Source: Escherichia phage HMD-6. From it: a stretch of 64,000 nt of DNA. The stretch lies in the sequence record PQ505080.1, one strand, 5' to 3'. The translations under genes were made by a program, and so were the position numbers. The notes below the pieces were generated by a model. That model worked only from the letters and a program-made list of their open reading frames with translations. It had not been told where the DNA came from and made no database searches. Below are positions 7,787 to 12,173 of this stretch, one piece after another; positions within the stretch are counted from its first letter, which is position 1; each line of letters starts with the position of its first letter.

Positions 7787-7834
7787 GTTTATTTTTAGAT
7801 GGCCTTGACTCCAGGGCCATCAATAAAGTAAACT
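7787..7834. repeat. conserved 48-bp intergenic element, copy 1 (hairpin GATGGCC-TTGACTCCAG-GGCCATC)
   Basis: Near-identical to 8407-8455 and 12127-12173; sits immediately after a stop codon. Confidence 0.65.
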
Positions 7835-7984
7835 AGTCTCAACTAAGCGAAAAGGGGGCTTTAAGATGAGCATTGCACGCCAACACACAAAGGTAACTAT
7901 TATCGTTTGCGTTGTCGGTTACATCCTGGCGCAAATGTTAATGAGTAGCGCCAACAGTTTTGCAAAATTTTTCTTAAATTTTTA

Positions 7985-8012
7985 ATTGACAAGCTAACCC
8001 AAATCAGTATAC
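7985..8012 (+). promoter_or_regulatory. sigma70-type promoter
   Basis: TTGACA-16-TATACT. Confidence 0.6.
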
Positions 8013-8064
8013 TTAAACACGTAAACGGGAAAACTTCCCAGAACACACAAAAGGAGAAAACACT

Positions 8065-8406
8065 ATGACTACTATGACCGCCGCAGAAAAAGCTATGCAG
8101 ATCGCCGCGCTGAAAAAACAGATCGCAGACCTTGAGAACAAGATCGATAACTTTGAAATCGACGAGGACAAGTACGACGAAAACTATGATGACTGGTTAG
8201 ACGAGATCTACGGCGAAATTATGATCGGTAACATTTCTTTCCTTCCGTCGCGTATCCTCAAGGAGTTAGATCCTATTGCTTACCGCTGTGGATTTAGCGA
8301 CTACATCGACAGCCTGGATATTGAGGACGATGAAGAGTACCAGGAATTGCAGACAGAGTTGGAGGAAGTGAAAGAGGAACTTTTAGAGCTGGAAGAGAAC
8401 GAGTAA
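8065..8406 (+). CDS. hypothetical acidic protein (113 aa)
   Basis: ORF track; AAGGAGA RBS. Confidence 0.6.
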   Translation: MTTMTAAEKAMQIAALKKQIADLENKIDNFEIDEDKYDENYDDWLDEIYGEIMIGNISFLPSRILKELDPIAYRCGFSDYIDSLDIEDDEEYQELQTELEEVKEELLELEENE

Positions 8407-8455
8407 AATTTATTTTTAGATGGCCTTGACTCCAGGGCCATCAATAAAGTAAACT
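8407..8455. repeat. conserved 48-bp intergenic element, copy 2
   Basis: See 7787-7834. Confidence 0.65.
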
Positions 8456-8493
8456 TTACACTGTTAACACTGAACTAATGAGGAGTTAAAACT

Positions 8494-8739
8494 ATGGCAG
8501 CACTAATCACCAAATATTATGCGCCTACCAACACAAAAAGCGCCCGTATCATGGTAAAAGGCTTCGGACGTAAAAAGGTCTACACCTGGGACTATTCCTT
8601 AGACATGGAAGACAATTACACCAACGCGATGACCGACTTTATTAATGATCTGAATAAACAGATCTTGACCGACTACAAAGTGACCGATATTGCTTACATA
8701 GGTGAAGGCGGGATCTGTTTTGTAGGCATTGTGAAATAG
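8494..8739 (+). CDS. hypothetical protein (81 aa)
   Basis: ORF track; GAGGAG RBS. Confidence 0.55.
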   Translation: MAALITKYYAPTNTKSARIMVKGFGRKKVYTWDYSLDMEDNYTNAMTDFINDLNKQILTDYKVTDIAYIGEGGICFVGIVK

Positions 8740-8741
8740 TT

Positions 8742-8785
8742 ATTTTTTCGGTGGTCCTGGCTGCAGGGCCATCTATAAAGATAAT
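8742..8785. repeat. degenerate copy of conserved intergenic element
   Basis: TATTTTTTCGGTGGTCCTGGCTGCAGGGCCATCTATAAAG. Confidence 0.4.
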
Positions 8786-8815
8786 TTATTAACACCATGA
8801 AAGGAGAAAGTACAC

Positions 8816-9169
8816 ATGATCAGCGGGGCCAGTTTTATTATCGGCGCTATTGCTACGGCTTTAATTGTAAACAAAATCCAGGATAAAAAGGAAAGAGGAA
8901 GTACCGCCCTTGCAGAATATCCATTTTGGACATTTAACGATAACGAAGATTATATTATAAAGTATAAAAATAAAGAAGGCGACCAAGTAACACCGCGACC
9001 GATCCCGGCTTACAAAATGCAGGAAACACTATACCGCCTTGAGGCGGGCGGCGCAAAAATTGTTGACTTTTGGGGATACGACCACACAGATCAGGAAGTT
9101 ATAAAGCGCCGTATCCGGGCTATTCAGGCCAATATTGAGGTTAACAAGGGGGGAATATATGAAAATTAA
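8816..9169 (+). CDS. hypothetical protein with N-terminal hydrophobic segment (117 aa)
   Basis: ORF track; AAGGAGAAAGTACACATG. Confidence 0.55.
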   Translation: MISGASFIIGAIATALIVNKIQDKKERGSTALAEYPFWTFNDNEDYIIKYKNKEGDQVTPRPIPAYKMQETLYRLEAGGAKIVDFWGYDHTDQEVIKRRIRAIQANIEVNKGGIYEN

Positions 9170-9356
9170 TTTCGAGAAAATTGTAAAGCGCCCTCATGAT
9201 TCCGAAGAGTTGCCAGAACGCCGACAGCGCAACAATAAACTGAATAAGCCAAAAAGGTTTGGGAAGATCTGGCGGAATCATTATGATCGTAAATTGCCCG
9301 GCCTACTTTTGGAACGTGAACGACAGGCAGAACGATACCGCCATAAAGACAAATAA
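9159..9356 (+). CDS. hypothetical basic protein (65 aa)
   Basis: ATG 9159 after GGGGGAA; overlaps upstream stop. Confidence 0.45.
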   Translation: MKINFEKIVKRPHDSEELPERRQRNNKLNKPKRFGKIWRNHYDRKLPGLLLERERQAERYRHKDK

Positions 9357-9364
9357 CAGCCAAC

Positions 9365-9393
9365 GCCCCGCCATTGTGCGGGGCTTTTTATTT
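9365..9393 (+). terminator. rho-independent terminator
   Basis: GCCCCGC-CATTGT-GCGGGGC then TTTTTATTT. Confidence 0.65.
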
Positions 9394-9513
9394 CTACCCT
9401 ACGAATAGCGCCCCTGGTTGGCCCTGTAAGCGCCAAAAAGGCCCCCACCTATGCAATCGCCCCTTTAACCTGAAAACATCGCTCAGGGCCGTTCTATGGC
9501 GTTAAAAATATCA

Positions 9514-9541
9514 TTGACATCGTCAACAGGTTAGCTATAAT
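9514..9541 (+). promoter_or_regulatory. sigma70-type promoter
   Basis: TTGACA-16-TATAAT. Confidence 0.65.
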
Positions 9542-9573
9542 AACCACATCAAAGAGAGAAAGGAGTAAACGCC

Positions 9574-10532: not shown

Positions 10533-10540
10533 ATAAAGTG

Positions 10541-10568
10541 TTGCAATAACCTAAAAACCTGCTATATT
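10541..10568 (+). promoter_or_regulatory. sigma70-type promoter
   Basis: TTGCAA-16-TATATT; leader hairpin GGCGGGC..GCCCGCC follows. Confidence 0.5.
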
Positions 10569-10625
10569 AAAACTCAAGGCGGGCGAGACGTTTGCCCGCC
10601 AACACAAAACAAAGAGGATAACATC

Positions 10626-11006
10626 ATGAAAAATACTACCAAGGCTATTGACACCGTTATGTTTAACCTGGTTACATTCCGTGAAGATATGAAAGATCTT
10701 CCGCGTGAAACAGTGTGCGACCATATCGAAAACTATCGCAAACTAATCAAAGAGTTGCCTTTAAAACGTGATCAATATGCGGCTAACGCCATGCTTAATG
10801 CCATGATCAAAAAGATGATCCAGTGTGATTTAACCCTGGCCTATGATTATGCGGGTGGTCGTTTTGCAGTATACAATCAGCCCGTGCCCGGTATGAGCAC
10901 CACCGAAGAATTGCACGCGCTCAATCTAAAACAGGACGTGTGGGATAGTATGCCTCGCGTAGTAGTATGGGTAGAAAGCGGAAAGGTTTACGGCGATAAT
11001 TTTTAA
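10626..11006 (+). CDS. hypothetical protein (126 aa)
   Basis: ORF track; AGAGGATAACATCATG. Confidence 0.6.
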   Translation: MKNTTKAIDTVMFNLVTFREDMKDLPRETVCDHIENYRKLIKELPLKRDQYAANAMLNAMIKKMIQCDLTLAYDYAGGRFAVYNQPVPGMSTTEELHALNLKQDVWDSMPRVVVWVESGKVYGDNF

Positions 11007-11017
11007 TCAGGTAATAG

Positions 11018-11042
11018 GCGGCATATTTGCCGCCTTATTGTT
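11018..11042 (+). terminator. rho-independent terminator
   Basis: GGCGGCA-TATT-TGCCGCC followed by TTATTGTTG. Confidence 0.5.
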
Positions 11043-11070
11043 GATCAGATCTGCAAAAGGGGTACATAGA

Positions 11071-11442
11071 ATGGAATTTATTATGTTGGCTGTGTTGGTC
11101 GCCTTATTTAACGCCTGGATCGCTGGCAAGATGGGAAGATCCGCCTTTTTATGGTTTATTGTATCTATTTTCCTGGGGGTGGTTGCAACTATTGTATTGG
11201 TTATCCTTGCAATTGTTGACAAGGGGAATAATAGAAAGGGTAAAGTATTTTCAGACCTGTACGACGCTCAAACTTTTGTTAACGCCTATTATAGTGATCT
11301 CCCAGTCTCCCTACGTTGCAGCCTTGCACAACAGGTTTTCGATGAAGCTAAAACCAGAGATCACGCCCATGAGATTTGTTTAACTGAGGCGGATCGCTTA
11401 TTTGAGAGGAATAGAAAATATGTGGGCCAGCCGTTTAAATAA
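11071..11442 (+). CDS. predicted membrane protein (123 aa)
   Basis: ATG 11071 after AAAAGGGG; two hydrophobic helices. Confidence 0.5.
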   Translation: MEFIMLAVLVALFNAWIAGKMGRSAFLWFIVSIFLGVVATIVLVILAIVDKGNNRKGKVFSDLYDAQTFVNAYYSDLPVSLRCSLAQQVFDEAKTRDHAHEICLTEADRLFERNRKYVGQPFK

Positions 11443-11641
11443 TACCACGTTAATTAATCCATTTAGTGAAGATTTGAAGCCAGCCGCCTGGCGTGACGGA
11501 TTCAATAACGAAAGCTTTATTTTCAGGCCTGATCTTGAGGAATTTTATAACAATGGATCGAACAACGACAGAAATAATTTTTCTCGTAATGTGCGTGGCG
11601 ATAATACTCCTGGGGGCCATTGTAAACCACGTCACTGCTAA
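11420..11641 (+). CDS. hypothetical protein (73 aa), doubtful
   Basis: ATG 11420; overlaps 3' end of previous gene in another frame. Confidence 0.3.
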   Translation: MWASRLNNTTLINPFSEDLKPAAWRDGFNNESFIFRPDLEEFYNNGSNNDRNNFSRNVRGDNTPGGHCKPRHC

Positions 11642-11661
11642 CAGGAGGAAAGGGGGAGACG

Positions 11662-11781
11662 ATGACGCCCAAGGATAAGCCCAGCACCGATAAGGCGCGC
11701 CGCGTTATGGTATGGCTTGAGATTATCGCCCTTGAAATATTGTTAGGCGTAGGGATGTATTTTATCGCCGTACGTACCTGA
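11662..11781 (+). CDS. small hydrophobic peptide (39 aa)
   Basis: AGGAGGAAAGGGGG RBS then ATG 11662; not in ORF track (below length cutoff); followed by terminator. Confidence 0.35.
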   Translation: MTPKDKPSTDKARRVMVWLEIIALEILLGVGMYFIAVRT

Positions 11782-11785
11782 TAAC

Positions 11786-11815
11786 GGCCCCCGATCCCTG
11801 GGGCCTGACTTTTTT
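11786..11815 (+). terminator. rho-independent terminator
   Basis: GGCCCC-GATCCCT-GGGGCC then TGACTTTTTTC. Confidence 0.55.
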
Positions 11816-11837
11816 CAAAAAATTTTTCTTCCGGGGT

Positions 11838-11866
11838 GTTGCAATCCGGTCCGGGATATGGATAAT
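11838..11866 (+). promoter_or_regulatory. sigma70-type promoter
   Basis: TTGCAA-17-ATAATA; leader hairpin GGGGAGACACTCCCC follows. Confidence 0.5.
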
Positions 11867-11925
11867 AACAATCAACGGGGAGACACTCCCCACCACACAG
11901 ACAAAGTTCCAAAAGGAGAAACAAA

Positions 11926-12126
11926 ATGAGCAACAATATCCGCGTTATTAATTTCAAAAAAGAAGAAAAAATCGCTGTGCTGGTTGATGGTCAAGAAATA
12001 TTCAAGGGGTATTATGAAGATCATCAGGCGGCGATCAGTATTACCCGCGTAATTGGTTACCATAATTTTTACCCTCAAGGCGCTGAGGCAGCAGTAAAAC
12101 GAATTAAAGAGATCGTAGGCCTGTAA
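11926..12126 (+). CDS. hypothetical protein (66 aa)
   Basis: ORF track; AAGGAGAAACAAAATG. Confidence 0.55.
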   Translation: MSNNIRVINFKKEEKIAVLVDGQEIFKGYYEDHQAAISITRVIGYHNFYPQGAEAAVKRIKEIVGL

Positions 12127-12173
12127 AATTTATTTTTAGATGGCCTTGACCCAGGGCCATCAAATAAAGTAAA
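12127..12173. repeat. conserved 48-bp intergenic element, copy 3
   Basis: See 7787-7834. Confidence 0.65.

Follow-up and report, generated by a model that had tools for sequence, protein, structure and literature searches.

The early region of a Vequintavirus (an rV5/FV3-like phage of E. coli, subfamily Vequintavirinae) harbors a repeated intergenic element of about 50 nt, present in four copies among small early genes. Comparison of related sequences shows that selection has maintained, in all four copies, the two-tier fold predicted for sense-strand read-through mRNA. We consider the chances about even that the element is a composite intercistronic cassette of the early region, built like the promoter-early stem-loops (PeSLs) of T4-like phages, with a hairpin that would act on the mRNA in processing or 3'-end stabilization.

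Results

Four copies of the element in one stretch of the early region

Searches of the window, by which we mean the whole 64-kb stretch of DNA analyzed, with a profile HMM and with a covariance model both recovered exactly four copies and no others, all on the + strand (as are all features located below). Copy 1 lies at 7786-7834 (predicted fold -25.0 kcal/mol, z -7.0; covariance model 80.8 bits), copy 2 at 8404-8458 (-21.4 kcal/mol, z -6.6; 79.9 bits), the 'degenerate' copy 4 at 8738-8786 (-22.4 kcal/mol, z -5.5; 72.2 bits), and copy 3 at 12126-12176 (-22.0 kcal/mol, z -5.9; 68.6 bits). The three near-identical copies and one degenerate copy placed by an earlier, sequence-only reading agree with the sequence and with both models. 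A 24-nt core, GATGGCCTTGACTCCAGGGCCATC, is exact at 7798-7821 and 8419-8442 (shuffles expect 0 matches), shorter by one base at 12139-12161 in copy 3, and degenerate at 8750-8773 in copy 4.

Every copy opens on a stop codon (TAA 7784-7786, TAA 8404-8406, TAG 8737-8739, and TAA 12124-12126 for copies 1, 2, 4, and 3, respectively), as that reading had also stated. Each is followed by a ribosome-binding site and an ATG (7866, 8494, 8816, and 12212/12218, in the same order), with 25-40 nt between the end of the copy and the ribosome-binding site in all four cases. The copies sit between ORFs of 39-134 aa, which match only PHROGs of unknown function.

A search across the complete genome and relatives, which the sequence-only reading had proposed, located the element in about 120 genomes of the genus, in the same region only. 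When the covariance model was applied to the rest of a complete genome that is 97.7% identical, it gave no copy outside this region; in the window and this relative, the element is confined to a 4.4-kb early-gene stretch. The copies occupy orthologous positions in every genome examined, and their region has many indels between related genomes. No copy was found among 5,426 E. coli genomes searched, and none of 38 pattern matches in bacterial genome contigs had a two-tier hairpin. A dispersed repeat of the REP/BIME or MITE kind was considered and rejected: the element has just four copies, all within 4.4 kb, and was found neither elsewhere in the complete genome nor in the host.

The element folds into a two-tier hairpin

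The predicted RNA hairpin consists of a 10-bp A/U lower stem, a 2x3 internal loop, a 10-bp upper stem with the arms GAUGGCCUUG/CAGGGCCAUC, which include a U-G pair, and a 4-nt loop. The sequence-only reading had described a hairpin of 7 bp with a 10-nt loop, formed by the palindromic core. The hairpin is real and conserved, and the core does pair, but the upper stem has 10 bp and a 4-nt loop, and the A/T-rich flanks also pair with each other in a second 10-bp stem, so that the whole ~50 nt is one hairpin.

In copy 1, the lower stem is at 7786-7795/7825-7834, the internal loop at 7796-7797/7822-7824, the upper stem at 7798-7807/7812-7821, and the loop (ACTC) at 7808-7811. Copy 2 has its lower stem at 8409-8416/8446-8453 with an extension at 8404-8407/8455-8458, its upper stem at 8419-8428/8433-8442, and its loop at 8429-8432. 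Copy 3 pairs at 12126-12136/12166-12176 in the lower stem and 12139-12148/12152-12161 in the upper stem, with a 3-nt loop (ACC) and one additional A in the internal loop (2x4 instead of 2x3). Copy 4 was rightly called degenerate in sequence, having diverged and lacking TTGAC, but its two-tier structure is fully kept: the lower stem is at 8738-8747/8777-8786 and the upper stem, GGUGGUCCUG/CAGGGCCAUC, at 8750-8759/8764-8773 with the loop GCUG. Predicted fold energies of the four copies on the + strand were -21 to -25 kcal/mol (z -5.5 to -7.0), and the - strand folds were weaker (-16.8 and -8.1 kcal/mol).

Conservation of the fold points to the sense-strand RNA

Pairing was evaluated in 46 distinct copies from 18 phage genomes or viral contigs and the window (19 sources). 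On the sense strand, 97.3% of pair cells were paired, many of which share descent (the genomes are just 3-14% diverged), compared with 36-58% when the partners were slid; on the antisense strand, 85.3% were paired. Of the pair cells on the + strand, 13.4% were G-U, which the - strand would read as A-C. In the lower stem, four pairs vary in both partners (GC/AU/GU, UA/CG, UA/GU/AU/GC, and AU/UA), and the covariation score was 0.199 compared with 0.120 in shuffles, none of 500 of which reached the observed value.

In the upper stem, all substitutions in the 19-source set were transitions preserving G-U pairing. They occur in copy 4, at three positions where pairing is kept relative to copies 1-3 (A-U to G-U, C-G to U-G, and U-G to C-G), in copy 1 of FFH2, and in copy 3 of EdH4, phiWec189, and A12a. 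Watson-Crick-to-Watson-Crick covariation was found nowhere in the upper stem among the compared genomes because of their low divergence. Pairing is not kept by the stem changes in two metagenome versions of copy 3 (G to T in the pair that closes the loop; an additional G beside the loop), and copy 1 of Gotham has lost its right arm by an 8-nt deletion and would therefore be dispensable there. A copy 1 variant from IMG/VR keeps the fold with a 20-nt spacer in the promoter match.

At the DNA level, dyad symmetry is not kept: the left arm GATGGCCTTG differs from the right-arm complement GATGGCCCTG, and the variants add asymmetric transitions. Because nearly all substitutions break this symmetry yet keep G-U pairs on the + strand, their pattern points to a role of the sense-strand RNA rather than of a DNA operator. 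The protein-binding palindrome offered as one option in the sequence-only reading is disfavored on the same grounds, and the palindromic operator was rejected as a class, half-site symmetry being absent and G-U cells frequent on the + strand.

Promoter-like sequences overlap copies 1-3

A consensus scan found a sigma-70-like match, TTGACT-N18-TAAACT (9/12), at 7805-7834 in copy 1, where the -35 runs from the upper end of the upper stem into the loop, and the -10 coincides with the 3' arm of the lower stem. Copy 2 has the identical match at 8426-8455, and copy 3 has TTGACC-N18-TAAATT at 12146-12175. The T-rich tract upstream of the match can be read as UP-element-like, and the record of Gotham annotates the equivalent sites as 'promoter predicted by PhagePromoter'. 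TTGAC is constant in copies 1-3 and the following two loop bases vary freely; in copy 3 of the window, a 1-nt loop deletion is accompanied by a 1-nt spacer insertion, and N18 is retained. TH18, a phage of a sister genus, carries a repeat of its own in which a hairpin encloses TTGACT-N17-TAGAAT.

Matches of the 9/12 type are common by chance in the region (50 found vs 30 expected), and the spacer of 18 nt compares with 15-17 nt in the 26 promoters of part 1 of the rV5 promoter table. Copy 4 has lost the -35 (CTGGYN): it reads CTGGCT-N17-GATAAT, and the -10-like GATAAT drifts to GATAGT, GACAGT, and GATAAC in other genomes, mostly with paired changes in the 5' arm. Its loop also has a fixed first base and two variable last bases, so this pattern is not specific to a -35. 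The earlier suggestion that TTGACT and the A/T-rich hexamer act as a promoter is possible for copies 1-3, as predicted by the scan and PhagePromoter, and is weakened by the chance-common 9/12 score and by copy 4. It is possible that a weak-to-moderate sigma-70 promoter is superimposed on copies 1-3, restarting transcription for the next gene.

The copies lie inside predicted transcription units

The sequence 3' of the upper stem is AAUAAAG, and that 3' of the whole hairpins is AGUCUC, UUACAC, UAAACC, or UAUUAA; the element is not a canonical terminator because no U-tract follows. A consensus terminator scan of the region found canonical terminators at 9365, 11016, 11786, and 12576 and flagged none of the element sites. 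The terminator at 9365-9384 (GCCCCGC..GCGGGGC then TTTTTATTT) ends the unit of copies 2 and 4, and a similar one from the same scan, at 12576-12601, ends the unit containing copy 3. The upstream promoter TTGACA-N16-TAAACT at 7306-7333 is the equivalent of rV5 P194, and copy 1 would be included in its read-through RNA. Each copy is intercistronic, in a unit that runs from a consensus promoter to a canonical terminator.

The earlier proposal that the hairpin terminates transcription is thus poorly supported, the U-tract being absent and the sites being missed by a scan that finds canonical terminators. In the record of Murica, copies 3 and 4 appear as terminators of 45 nt. The element resembles intrinsic terminators in its stable G+C-containing hairpin directly 3' of a gene, and was rejected as a member of this class, in which a G+C-rich stem is followed within 0-2 nt by a U-tract. 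It is the mirror image of a bidirectional terminator, being U-rich 5' and A-rich 3' on both strands.

Recombination between copies removes a gene cassette

Recombination between the copies was the clearest result of the analysis and lay outside the expectations of the sequence-only reading. The cassette between copies 1 and 2 (7835-8405) contains a 39-aa ORF (7866-7985), a strong promoter, TTGACA-N16-TATACT (7986-8013), with a 5'-UTR hairpin attached, and a 113-aa ORF (8065-8406). Four related genomes (ECP32, phiWec189, ime, and the IMG/VR contig IMGVR_2051223002) lack it and have a single chimeric element with the left flank from copy 1 and the right flank from copy 2, 621 bp having been lost. 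Because ime differs by 0.2% from EdH4, which bears the cassette, and the nearest relatives of phiWec189, rV5 (1.4%) and A12a (0.1%), also hold the cassette sequence, there were at least two independent losses. Genome comparison shows that the near-identical copies are substrates for homologous recombination, by which the 621-bp cassette has been deleted repeatedly. Identical loop variants (ACAC, ACTT) recur at different copies inside one genome, and gene conversion likely homogenizes the copies. Since deletions in the same region also arise at unrelated 15-nt microhomologies, as in ev146, recombination between copies may be a passive by-product.

Discussion

We propose that read-through early mRNA would fold the ~50-nt two-tier hairpin, beginning at the upstream stop codon, and that this hairpin would serve as a processing or 3'-end-stabilizing site within polycistronic early transcripts, with RNase III as the leading candidate enzyme. 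In copies 1-3, a possible superimposed promoter (T-rich distal UP-like tract, TTGACT, 18-nt spacer, and TAAACT) may restart transcription.

PeSLs are found in the T4-like phages RB49, phi1, PST, and nt-1 (Arbiol et al. 2010, PMC2839356; Comeau et al. 2014, PMC4122927). They run from a stop codon through an AT-rich tract, -35/-10, and a stem-loop to an SD and ATG; the stem-loop may include G-T pairs and may overlap the -35, one PeSL stem-loop lowered downstream lacZ about as much as rrnB T1, and five subclasses are distinguished (PMC2839356). The Vequintavirus element is similarly a family of near-identical intergenic cassettes among small ORFan early genes, and each of the four runs from a stop codon in an AT-rich tract to the SD and ATG of the gene that follows. 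It also has a stable stem-loop with G-U pairs, whose upper stem and loop overlap the -35 as in one PeSL subclass, and motif-bounded indels between close relatives that leave one chimeric motif. On the other hand, it belongs to another subfamily and is unrelated in sequence; PeSLs have many copies, a strong consensus promoter, and a short G/C stem-loop, whereas the element has just four copies in one 4.4-kb stretch, a 9/12 match with an 18-nt spacer that is missing in one copy, and a long two-tier hairpin with a covarying A/U lower stem.

Each early RNase III site of T7 is a duplex of about 20 bp, or some two helical turns, in which an asymmetric internal loop separates the upper from the lower stem; R0.3, R0.5, R1, R1.1, and R1.3 are reportedly the early-region sites given by Dunn and Studier in 1983. 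The element matches this type of substrate in its 10 + 10 bp, its 2x3 internal loop (2x4 in copy 3), and its intercistronic location, and it is likewise a family of sequence-similar hairpins between early cistrons, near stop codons. When five T7 early intergenic regions, which we take to be the locations of these sites, were folded, they gave repeated, sequence-similar hairpins, and the T7 record has minor host promoters near two of them. The T7 sites differ in their larger internal loops and share no sequence homology with the element. Because of the matching architecture and the pairing constraint on the lower A/U stem, RNase III-type processing or stabilization is, by this analogy, most likely the role of the hairpin, and it would explain that constraint. 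REP sequences, such as those of the malEFG operon, are repeated extragenic palindromes that block 3' exonucleases and set relative cistron levels. The element is likewise a repeated extragenic palindrome inside operons; REPs, however, are host-borne, with hundreds of copies and another consensus, and the element is absent from E. coli genomes.

It seems unlikely that the element is a plain early sigma-70 promoter with a UP element, its inverted repeat acting as a DNA operator for a dimeric regulator of phage or host, or as a cruciform modulating the promoter. Such a promoter would fit the TTGACT-N18-TAAACT match with its T-rich tract, the PhagePromoter call in Gotham, the retention of TTGAC beside two variable loop bases, and the preserved N18 of copy 3, and TH18 has canonical promoters inside hairpins. 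Yet copy 4 retains the fold without a -35 or a stable -10 and shows the same loop pattern, the lower stem covaries, which neither a -10 box nor a UP element requires, and nearly all stem substitutions sacrifice dyad symmetry and spare + strand G-U pairs; moreover, the match is of 9/12 with a spacer longer than those of the 26 rV5 promoters and reaching 20 nt in one variant. Slightly less probable still is a terminator or attenuator that insulates neighboring early genes, as proposed for PeSL stem-loops. The stable hairpin directly 3' of stop codons and the Murica annotation speak for it, as does the rrnB T1-like reduction of lacZ by a PeSL stem-loop (PMC2839356), but neither the upper stem nor the full hairpin is followed by a U-tract, the hairpin base is A/U-rich compared with the G+C-rich stems of the scanned terminators, the scan that detects these passes over the element, and copies 2 and 4 lie mid-unit, the unit ending at the terminator at 9365.

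We give a little less weight again to an RNA binding site for a specific protein (an early regulator, an antitermination factor, or another endoribonuclease) that recognizes the conserved lower stem together with the internal loop. Sequence in both stems and in the internal loop is near-invariant, more so than pairing demands, and in unrelated low-GC phage contigs the identical lower stem with its internal loop, GUUUAUUUUUAGA...UCAAUAAAGUAAAU, is found under three different upper stems, all fully compensated. These contigs were, however, retrieved with that flank sequence as the query, which in part explains why they share it. The genomes of the genus are too similar to tell constraint on sequence from constraint on structure, no candidate protein was identified, and the flanking genes are all of unknown function. 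A selfish or neutral functionless repeat, spread by duplication or recombination in a MITE-like manner, is very improbable. In its favor, the copies are near-identical, the cassette flanked by two of them has been gained or lost, and Gotham has a broken copy. Against it, the copies number just four, confined to 4.4 kb and orthologously placed in all genomes examined; they lack terminal repeats and target duplications; and the compensatory changes, together with wobble pairs that are strand-specific, point to selection for the fold.

Beyond the PeSL-like cassette with an mRNA hairpin, which we prefer, it is doubtful that the lower stem and internal loop under any stable cap is a sequence-specific RNA signal common to unrelated phages; in the one low-GC phage contig examined for this, the motif precedes an HNH endonuclease gene. 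Such a shared signal, if true, would be recognized by a conserved factor of host or phage and would form an undescribed, widespread class of phage intercistronic RNA elements instead of a lineage-specific PeSL analogue.

Large lytic phages carry, in their early regions, many small genes of unknown function, probably serving host takeover or anti-defence in many cases, and the expression, insulation, and shuffling of such genes are known mainly from T4-like and T7-like phages. The element would extend the PeSL idea, a regulatory cassette doubling as a recombination linker, to the Vequintavirinae, and the recurrent cassette loss is backed by direct comparative evidence. It offers precise sites at which to compare RNase III processing with promoter restart in a phage wholly dependent on host RNA polymerase. 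Public records annotate it inconsistently, as a promoter in one, a terminator in another, and nothing in most. Vequintavirinae are widely used in phage therapy and biocontrol, and the repeats are predictable deletion points, as well as assembly break points, in rV5-like genomes.

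Distribution and placement of the intergenic element

Four copies of the ~50-nt element were found on the + strand, at 7786-7834 (copy 1), 8404-8458 (copy 2), 12126-12176 (copy 3) and 8738-8786 (the diverged copy 4). The 24-nt core GATGGCCTTGACTCCAGGGCCATC is exact at 7798-7821 and 8419-8442, with 0 occurrences expected in shuffled sequence; copy 3 (12139-12161) has a loop one base shorter, and copy 4 carries a diverged core (8750-8773). Both a profile HMM and a covariance model of the family, run over the 64-kb window, recovered these four + strand sites and no others, in agreement with the positions proposed in the sequence-only reading. 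Its placement of the element right after stop codons also holds for every copy: the stop codons of small ORFs that open them lie at 7784-7786, 8404-8406, 8737-8739 and 12124-12126, and the next Shine-Dalgarno sequence and ATG (7866, 8494, 8816 and 12212 or 12218) lie 25-40 nt beyond the end of each copy.

Identity over window 7000-13000 is 97.7% with Escherichia phage vB_EcoM_SYGMH1; FV3, rV5 and ~100 further Vequintavirus members match this segment at 92-96%. The proposed search across the complete genome and relatives gave, by BLAST with the 55-nt element, 120 records, all Vequintavirus, typically with three sites per genome; the diverged fourth copy escapes this query. No further copies were found in the other 76 kb of the SYGMH1 genome with the covariance model, in the sister-genus phage TH18 with the HMM and covariance model, or in 5,426 complete E. 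coli genomes with BLAST. The family is thus specific to the genus, and the genomes checked have it only within one 4.4-kb segment of the early region. Host mimicry was rejected, as there was no match in the complete E. coli genomes and the pattern matches in bacterial genome contigs lacked the two-tier hairpin. Scanning IMG/VR with the element's right half gave 16-mer matches that were mostly due to chance, and just two contigs from Vequintavirus. An Rfam scan of 7000-13000 at permissive E-values gave no meaningful match, the best over a copy being the rhtB sRNA (24 bits versus a gathering score of 55). Mean pairwise identity was 0.92-0.945 for the element, 0.87-0.94 for flanking coding sequence and 0.83-0.89 for the downstream UTR; conservation about equal to coding sequence and above the UTR is by itself modest evidence. 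Every match to the flanking proteins was a PHROG without known function, and thus gave no pointer to a cognate binding protein.

Some of the 120 records are mislabelled 'Campylobacter phage'. At 90-94% identity to the window, the MG0656xx 'UNVERIFIED: Campylobacter phage' GenBank records (e.g. records L067 and L068) are Vequintavirus genomes that probably carry the wrong host name. The element, or a site close to it, is where several of these records start or end, and C15 starts precisely with it; this looks like an assembly break at the repeat.

Structure and its conservation

Folding placed the entire ~50 nt in a single hairpin with two stems. The hairpin suspected earlier is thus real, but instead of a 7-bp stem with a 10-nt loop it comprises 10 + 10 bp and a 4-nt terminal loop. 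The A/U-rich lower stem pairs 5' AGUUUAUUUU with 3' AAAGUAAACU; an internal loop of 2 nt (5' arm) and 3 nt (3' arm) separates it from the upper stem, GAUGGCCUUG with CAGGGCCAUC, which includes one U-G pair. The free energies of the four copies were -21.4 to -25.0 kcal/mol (z of -5.5 to -7.0 against shuffles), whereas the complementary strand folded much more weakly (copy 1, -16.8 kcal/mol; copy 4, -8.1 kcal/mol).

We aligned 67 copies (46 distinct) from 19 sources: the window, two IMG/VR contigs and the GenBank records of 16 related phages. On the two-helix structure, 97.3% of 920 pair cells in the distinct copies were standard pairs, many of them of shared descent because the genomes are just 3-14% diverged; sliding the 3' partners by 1-3 columns lowered pairing to 36-58%. 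Four lower-stem pairs showed two-sided changes (GC/AU/GU; UA/CG; UA/GU/AU/GC; AU/UA), and the covariation score of 0.199 versus 0.120 in shuffles was reached by none of 500 shuffles. A few unpaired upper-stem cells came from a single misaligned row, that of window copy 3. Upper-stem variation in the 19-source set consisted of transitions only, with pairing retained via G-U: in copy 4, three positions depart from copies 1-3 (A-U to G-U, C-G to U-G, U-G to C-G), copy 1 of FFH2 has C-G to U-G, and copy 3 of EdH4, phiWec189 and A12a has G-C to G-U. No exchange between Watson-Crick pairs occurred in the upper stem among the 46 distinct copies. Stem changes that break pairing occur in two metagenome copy 3 sequences (a G-to-T at the loop-closing pair; an extra G beside the loop), and copy 1 of phage Gotham has lost its right arm through an 8-nt deletion.

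Pairing on the - strand reached only 85.3%, because the G-U pairs become A-C mismatches there. This asymmetry of the substitutions favours a structure of RNA (or single strands) in the direction of transcription, and argues against the protein-binding DNA palindrome considered previously and against a symmetric duplex-DNA operator in general.

Loop positions 3 and 4 (window 7810-7811, 8431-8432, 8762-8763; columns 30-31 of alignment A1) are hypervariable, and all four bases occur at the first of them, while the adjoining stems are almost invariant. The loops in copies 1-3 were ACTC, ACAC, ACTT, ACGC, ACCC and ACAT; those in copy 4 were GCTG, GTTG, GTAG, GTAA and GTGG. Identical variants recur at different copies within one genome (ACAC at copies 1 and 2 of EdH4, JEP1 and V18 and at copies 2 and 3 of MiataMamis; ACTT at copies 2 and 3 of rV5), for which gene conversion between copies, atop a mutational hot spot, is the simplest explanation. 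Phage ime differs from EdH4 by 0.2% in the flanks, yet in both loop and cassette presence.

Terminator and promoter readings

The record of phage Murica annotates copies 3 and 4 as 45-nt transcription terminators, a function also raised in the sequence-only reading, but attaches no evidence. On both strands the upper stem is preceded by the T-rich tract and followed by the A-rich one, the mirror image of a bidirectional terminator, and hence no U-tract follows the hairpin in either direction. For this reason the four elements were missed by a terminator scan that did pick up the canonical sites of the region (9365-9384, 11016-11035, 11786-11805, 12576-12601, 15342-15361). The strong promoter at 7986 and the 9365 terminator bound the unit that holds copies 2 and 4; copy 3 is flanked by a promoter-like site (11839) and the 12576 terminator. 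The terminator annotation is hard to reconcile with the lack of a U-tract.

That copies 1-3 contain an active sigma-70 promoter is, judged from sequence, an evenly balanced possibility. A consensus scan found 9/12 matches in TTGACT-N18-TAAACT (7805-7834, 8426-8455) and in TTGACC-N18-TAAATT of copy 3 (12146-12175), the upstream T-rich tract resembles, as we read it, a distal UP subsite, and PhagePromoter calls are present at the equivalent sites in the Gotham record. On the other hand, 9/12 matches are frequent by chance in this region (50 found versus 30 expected), and the 18-nt spacer lies outside the 15-17 nt for which the 26 promoters in part 1 of the table in the rV5 genome paper were selected. 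That paper lists 33 promoters and 20 terminators, and the element sites are not among them. Copy 4 has CTGGCT where the -35 would stand, and its GATAAT drifts to GATAGT, GACAGT and GATAAC, mostly with paired changes in the 5' arm; a copy 1 variant in IMG/VR retains the fold with a 20-nt spacer. The pattern of a fixed first loop base and two free last bases applies to copy 4 as well as copies 1-3, which weakens the conservation of TTGAC as evidence for a -35. The earlier promoter proposal may survive for copies 1-3, but a promoter cannot, on these sequences, be the feature common to all four copies. Two other candidates were rejected: a T4 late promoter from ATAAAG (TATAAAGA in copy 4), since the rV5 paper reports no gp33, gp45 or gp55 homologues, and an IHF site, since CATCAATAAAGTA has two mismatches and is not retained in copy 4.

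Recombination between copies and other repeats

ECP32, phiWec189, ime and the IMG/VR contig 2051223002_000007 each have one element, with the left flank of copy 1 and the right flank of copy 2, and lack window 7835-8405, a cassette of a 39-aa ORF, the promoter at 7986 and a 113-aa gene. BLAST against these genomes gives two segments that share, on the subject side, a stretch as long as the element. Phage ime differs on both sides by 0.2% from EdH4, which has the cassette; the nearest relatives of phiWec189 are rV5 upstream (1.4%, cassette present) and A12a downstream (0.1%), whose record begins within the cassette and has copy 2 with its normal left flank. Hence the cassette was lost by recombination between copies 1 and 2 at least twice. 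Other deletions in the region occurred at unrelated short homologies (rV5_ev146 lacks 7372-7878, between two copies of CGCCAACACA(CA)AAGG), so the element may be a passive though efficient recombination substrate.

The region is highly plastic. Many relatives have an extra ~365-bp gene cassette with a 351-nt ORF at window 12510-12530 (6497-6862 of record L001 and equivalents), which is missing from the window, rV5, RudolfGeigy, V18 and Gotham, and more indels occur at 13633-13929 and 14090-14400. Repeats of AATGATAATCATTCTCATTT at window 5988-6007, 6124-6143 and 16782-16801, and in TH18 (record L074, 11222-11247), closely resemble the E. coli Fur box (GATAATGATAATCATTATC); their conservation in the sister genus hints at iron-responsive control of some early transcription. 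Three ~47-nt direct repeats (TCTCAGTACTCGATCTGTTTTTCGTTT...) with 65-74 nt spacing at window 5685-5870 have an analogous triplet in TH18 (L074 10953-11165) and may form a binding array, of iterons or of some other kind. The repeat finder also detected clustered tRNA-like T-arm repeats (GGTTCGAnTCC) at 60524-61205, probably the tRNA gene array of the phage.

Comparison with known systems

We found no description of the element sites in the searchable literature. Among described systems, the closest is that of the promoter-early stem-loops (PeSLs) of T4-like phages, repeated intergenic cassettes in which an upstream stop codon is followed by an AT-rich tract, a sigma-70 promoter with a stem-loop, and the SD/ATG (PMC2839356, PMC4122927). 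The PeSL stem-loop may overlap the -35 and has G-T pairs, and PeSL-PeSL recombination deletes or inserts ORFans (PMC2839356, PMC4122927). The Vequintavirus element shares this layout, the promoter apart, and the recombination; a sigma-70 promoter may be part of it in copies 1-3, which have the 9/12 match, and copy 4 has no -35.

TH18 has an 82-nt repeated intergenic element of its own in three copies (L074 13312-13393, 16374-16455, 17546-17627), with an AT-rich tract and TTGACT-N17-TAGAAT; the hairpin ATGCCGTG/CACGGCAT holds the -10 in its loop. As a promoter-in-hairpin composite this element is clearer than that of HMD-6, and such composites thus seem to be a recurring theme in the subfamily.

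Public collections were searched for the lower-stem flanks separated by any 22-27 nt; the matches included Vequintavirus copies and the unrelated low-GC phage contigs L075 (901-946, +), L157/L186 (both -) and L237 (24-70, -). In these contigs the flanks GUUUAUUUUUAGA...UCAAUAAAGUAAAU surround three differing, fully compensated upper stems, without a -35-like sequence. The L075 and L157/L186 hairpins sit between a stop codon and a ribosome-binding site; in L075, the stop codon of a 62-aa ORF lies upstream and an HNH-endonuclease-like gene (952-1500) downstream. It is improbable that the lower stem and internal loop are a common, sequence-specific RNA signal, because the way the search was built accounts in part for the flanks being shared.

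Proposed role in early mRNA

A second promoter-plus-hairpin family occurs at window 7306-7378, 7986-8051, 9824-9896 and 10541-10616. A near-consensus TTGACA-N16-TAyAnT is followed within ~10 nt or less by the G/C hairpin GGCGGGAAnnTTCCCGCC, then AACACAAA and an RBS; the hairpin looks like a 5'-UTR stabiliser, and the EdH4 record annotates one of them as a terminator. Translational bypass of the T4 gene 60 type was rejected for the intergenic element, as each downstream gene has an RBS and a start codon of its own and the deletion genomes join different genes.

The intergenic hairpin provides about two helical turns of duplex broken by an asymmetric internal loop, directly after stop codons and between cistrons, in a small family of near-identical copies. 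The early RNase III sites of phage T7 have the same design of a two-turn duplex with an internal loop, intercistronic and repeated. The T7 RefSeq record does not annotate these sites, so we took them to lie in the five early intergenic regions; when folded, these regions also give sequence-similar hairpins (..AAGGUC...GUGGCCUUUAUGAU), and the T7 record has minor host promoters near two of the five. Constraint on the A/U lower stem is needed by neither an exonuclease block nor a -10 box, and fits a long-duplex requirement. Transcripts from the strong early promoters also carry a short G/C hairpin at the 5' end (7344, 8026, 9862, 10582), in keeping with a strategy of mRNA-end protection. We found no transcriptome study of a Vequintavirus in the literature. 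From the two-turn intercistronic duplex, the likeness to T7, the lower-stem constraint and the 5'-end hairpins, we favour a role in which the hairpin would be a processing or 3'-end-stabilising site in early polycistronic mRNA of these phages, with RNase III as the leading candidate to act on it.
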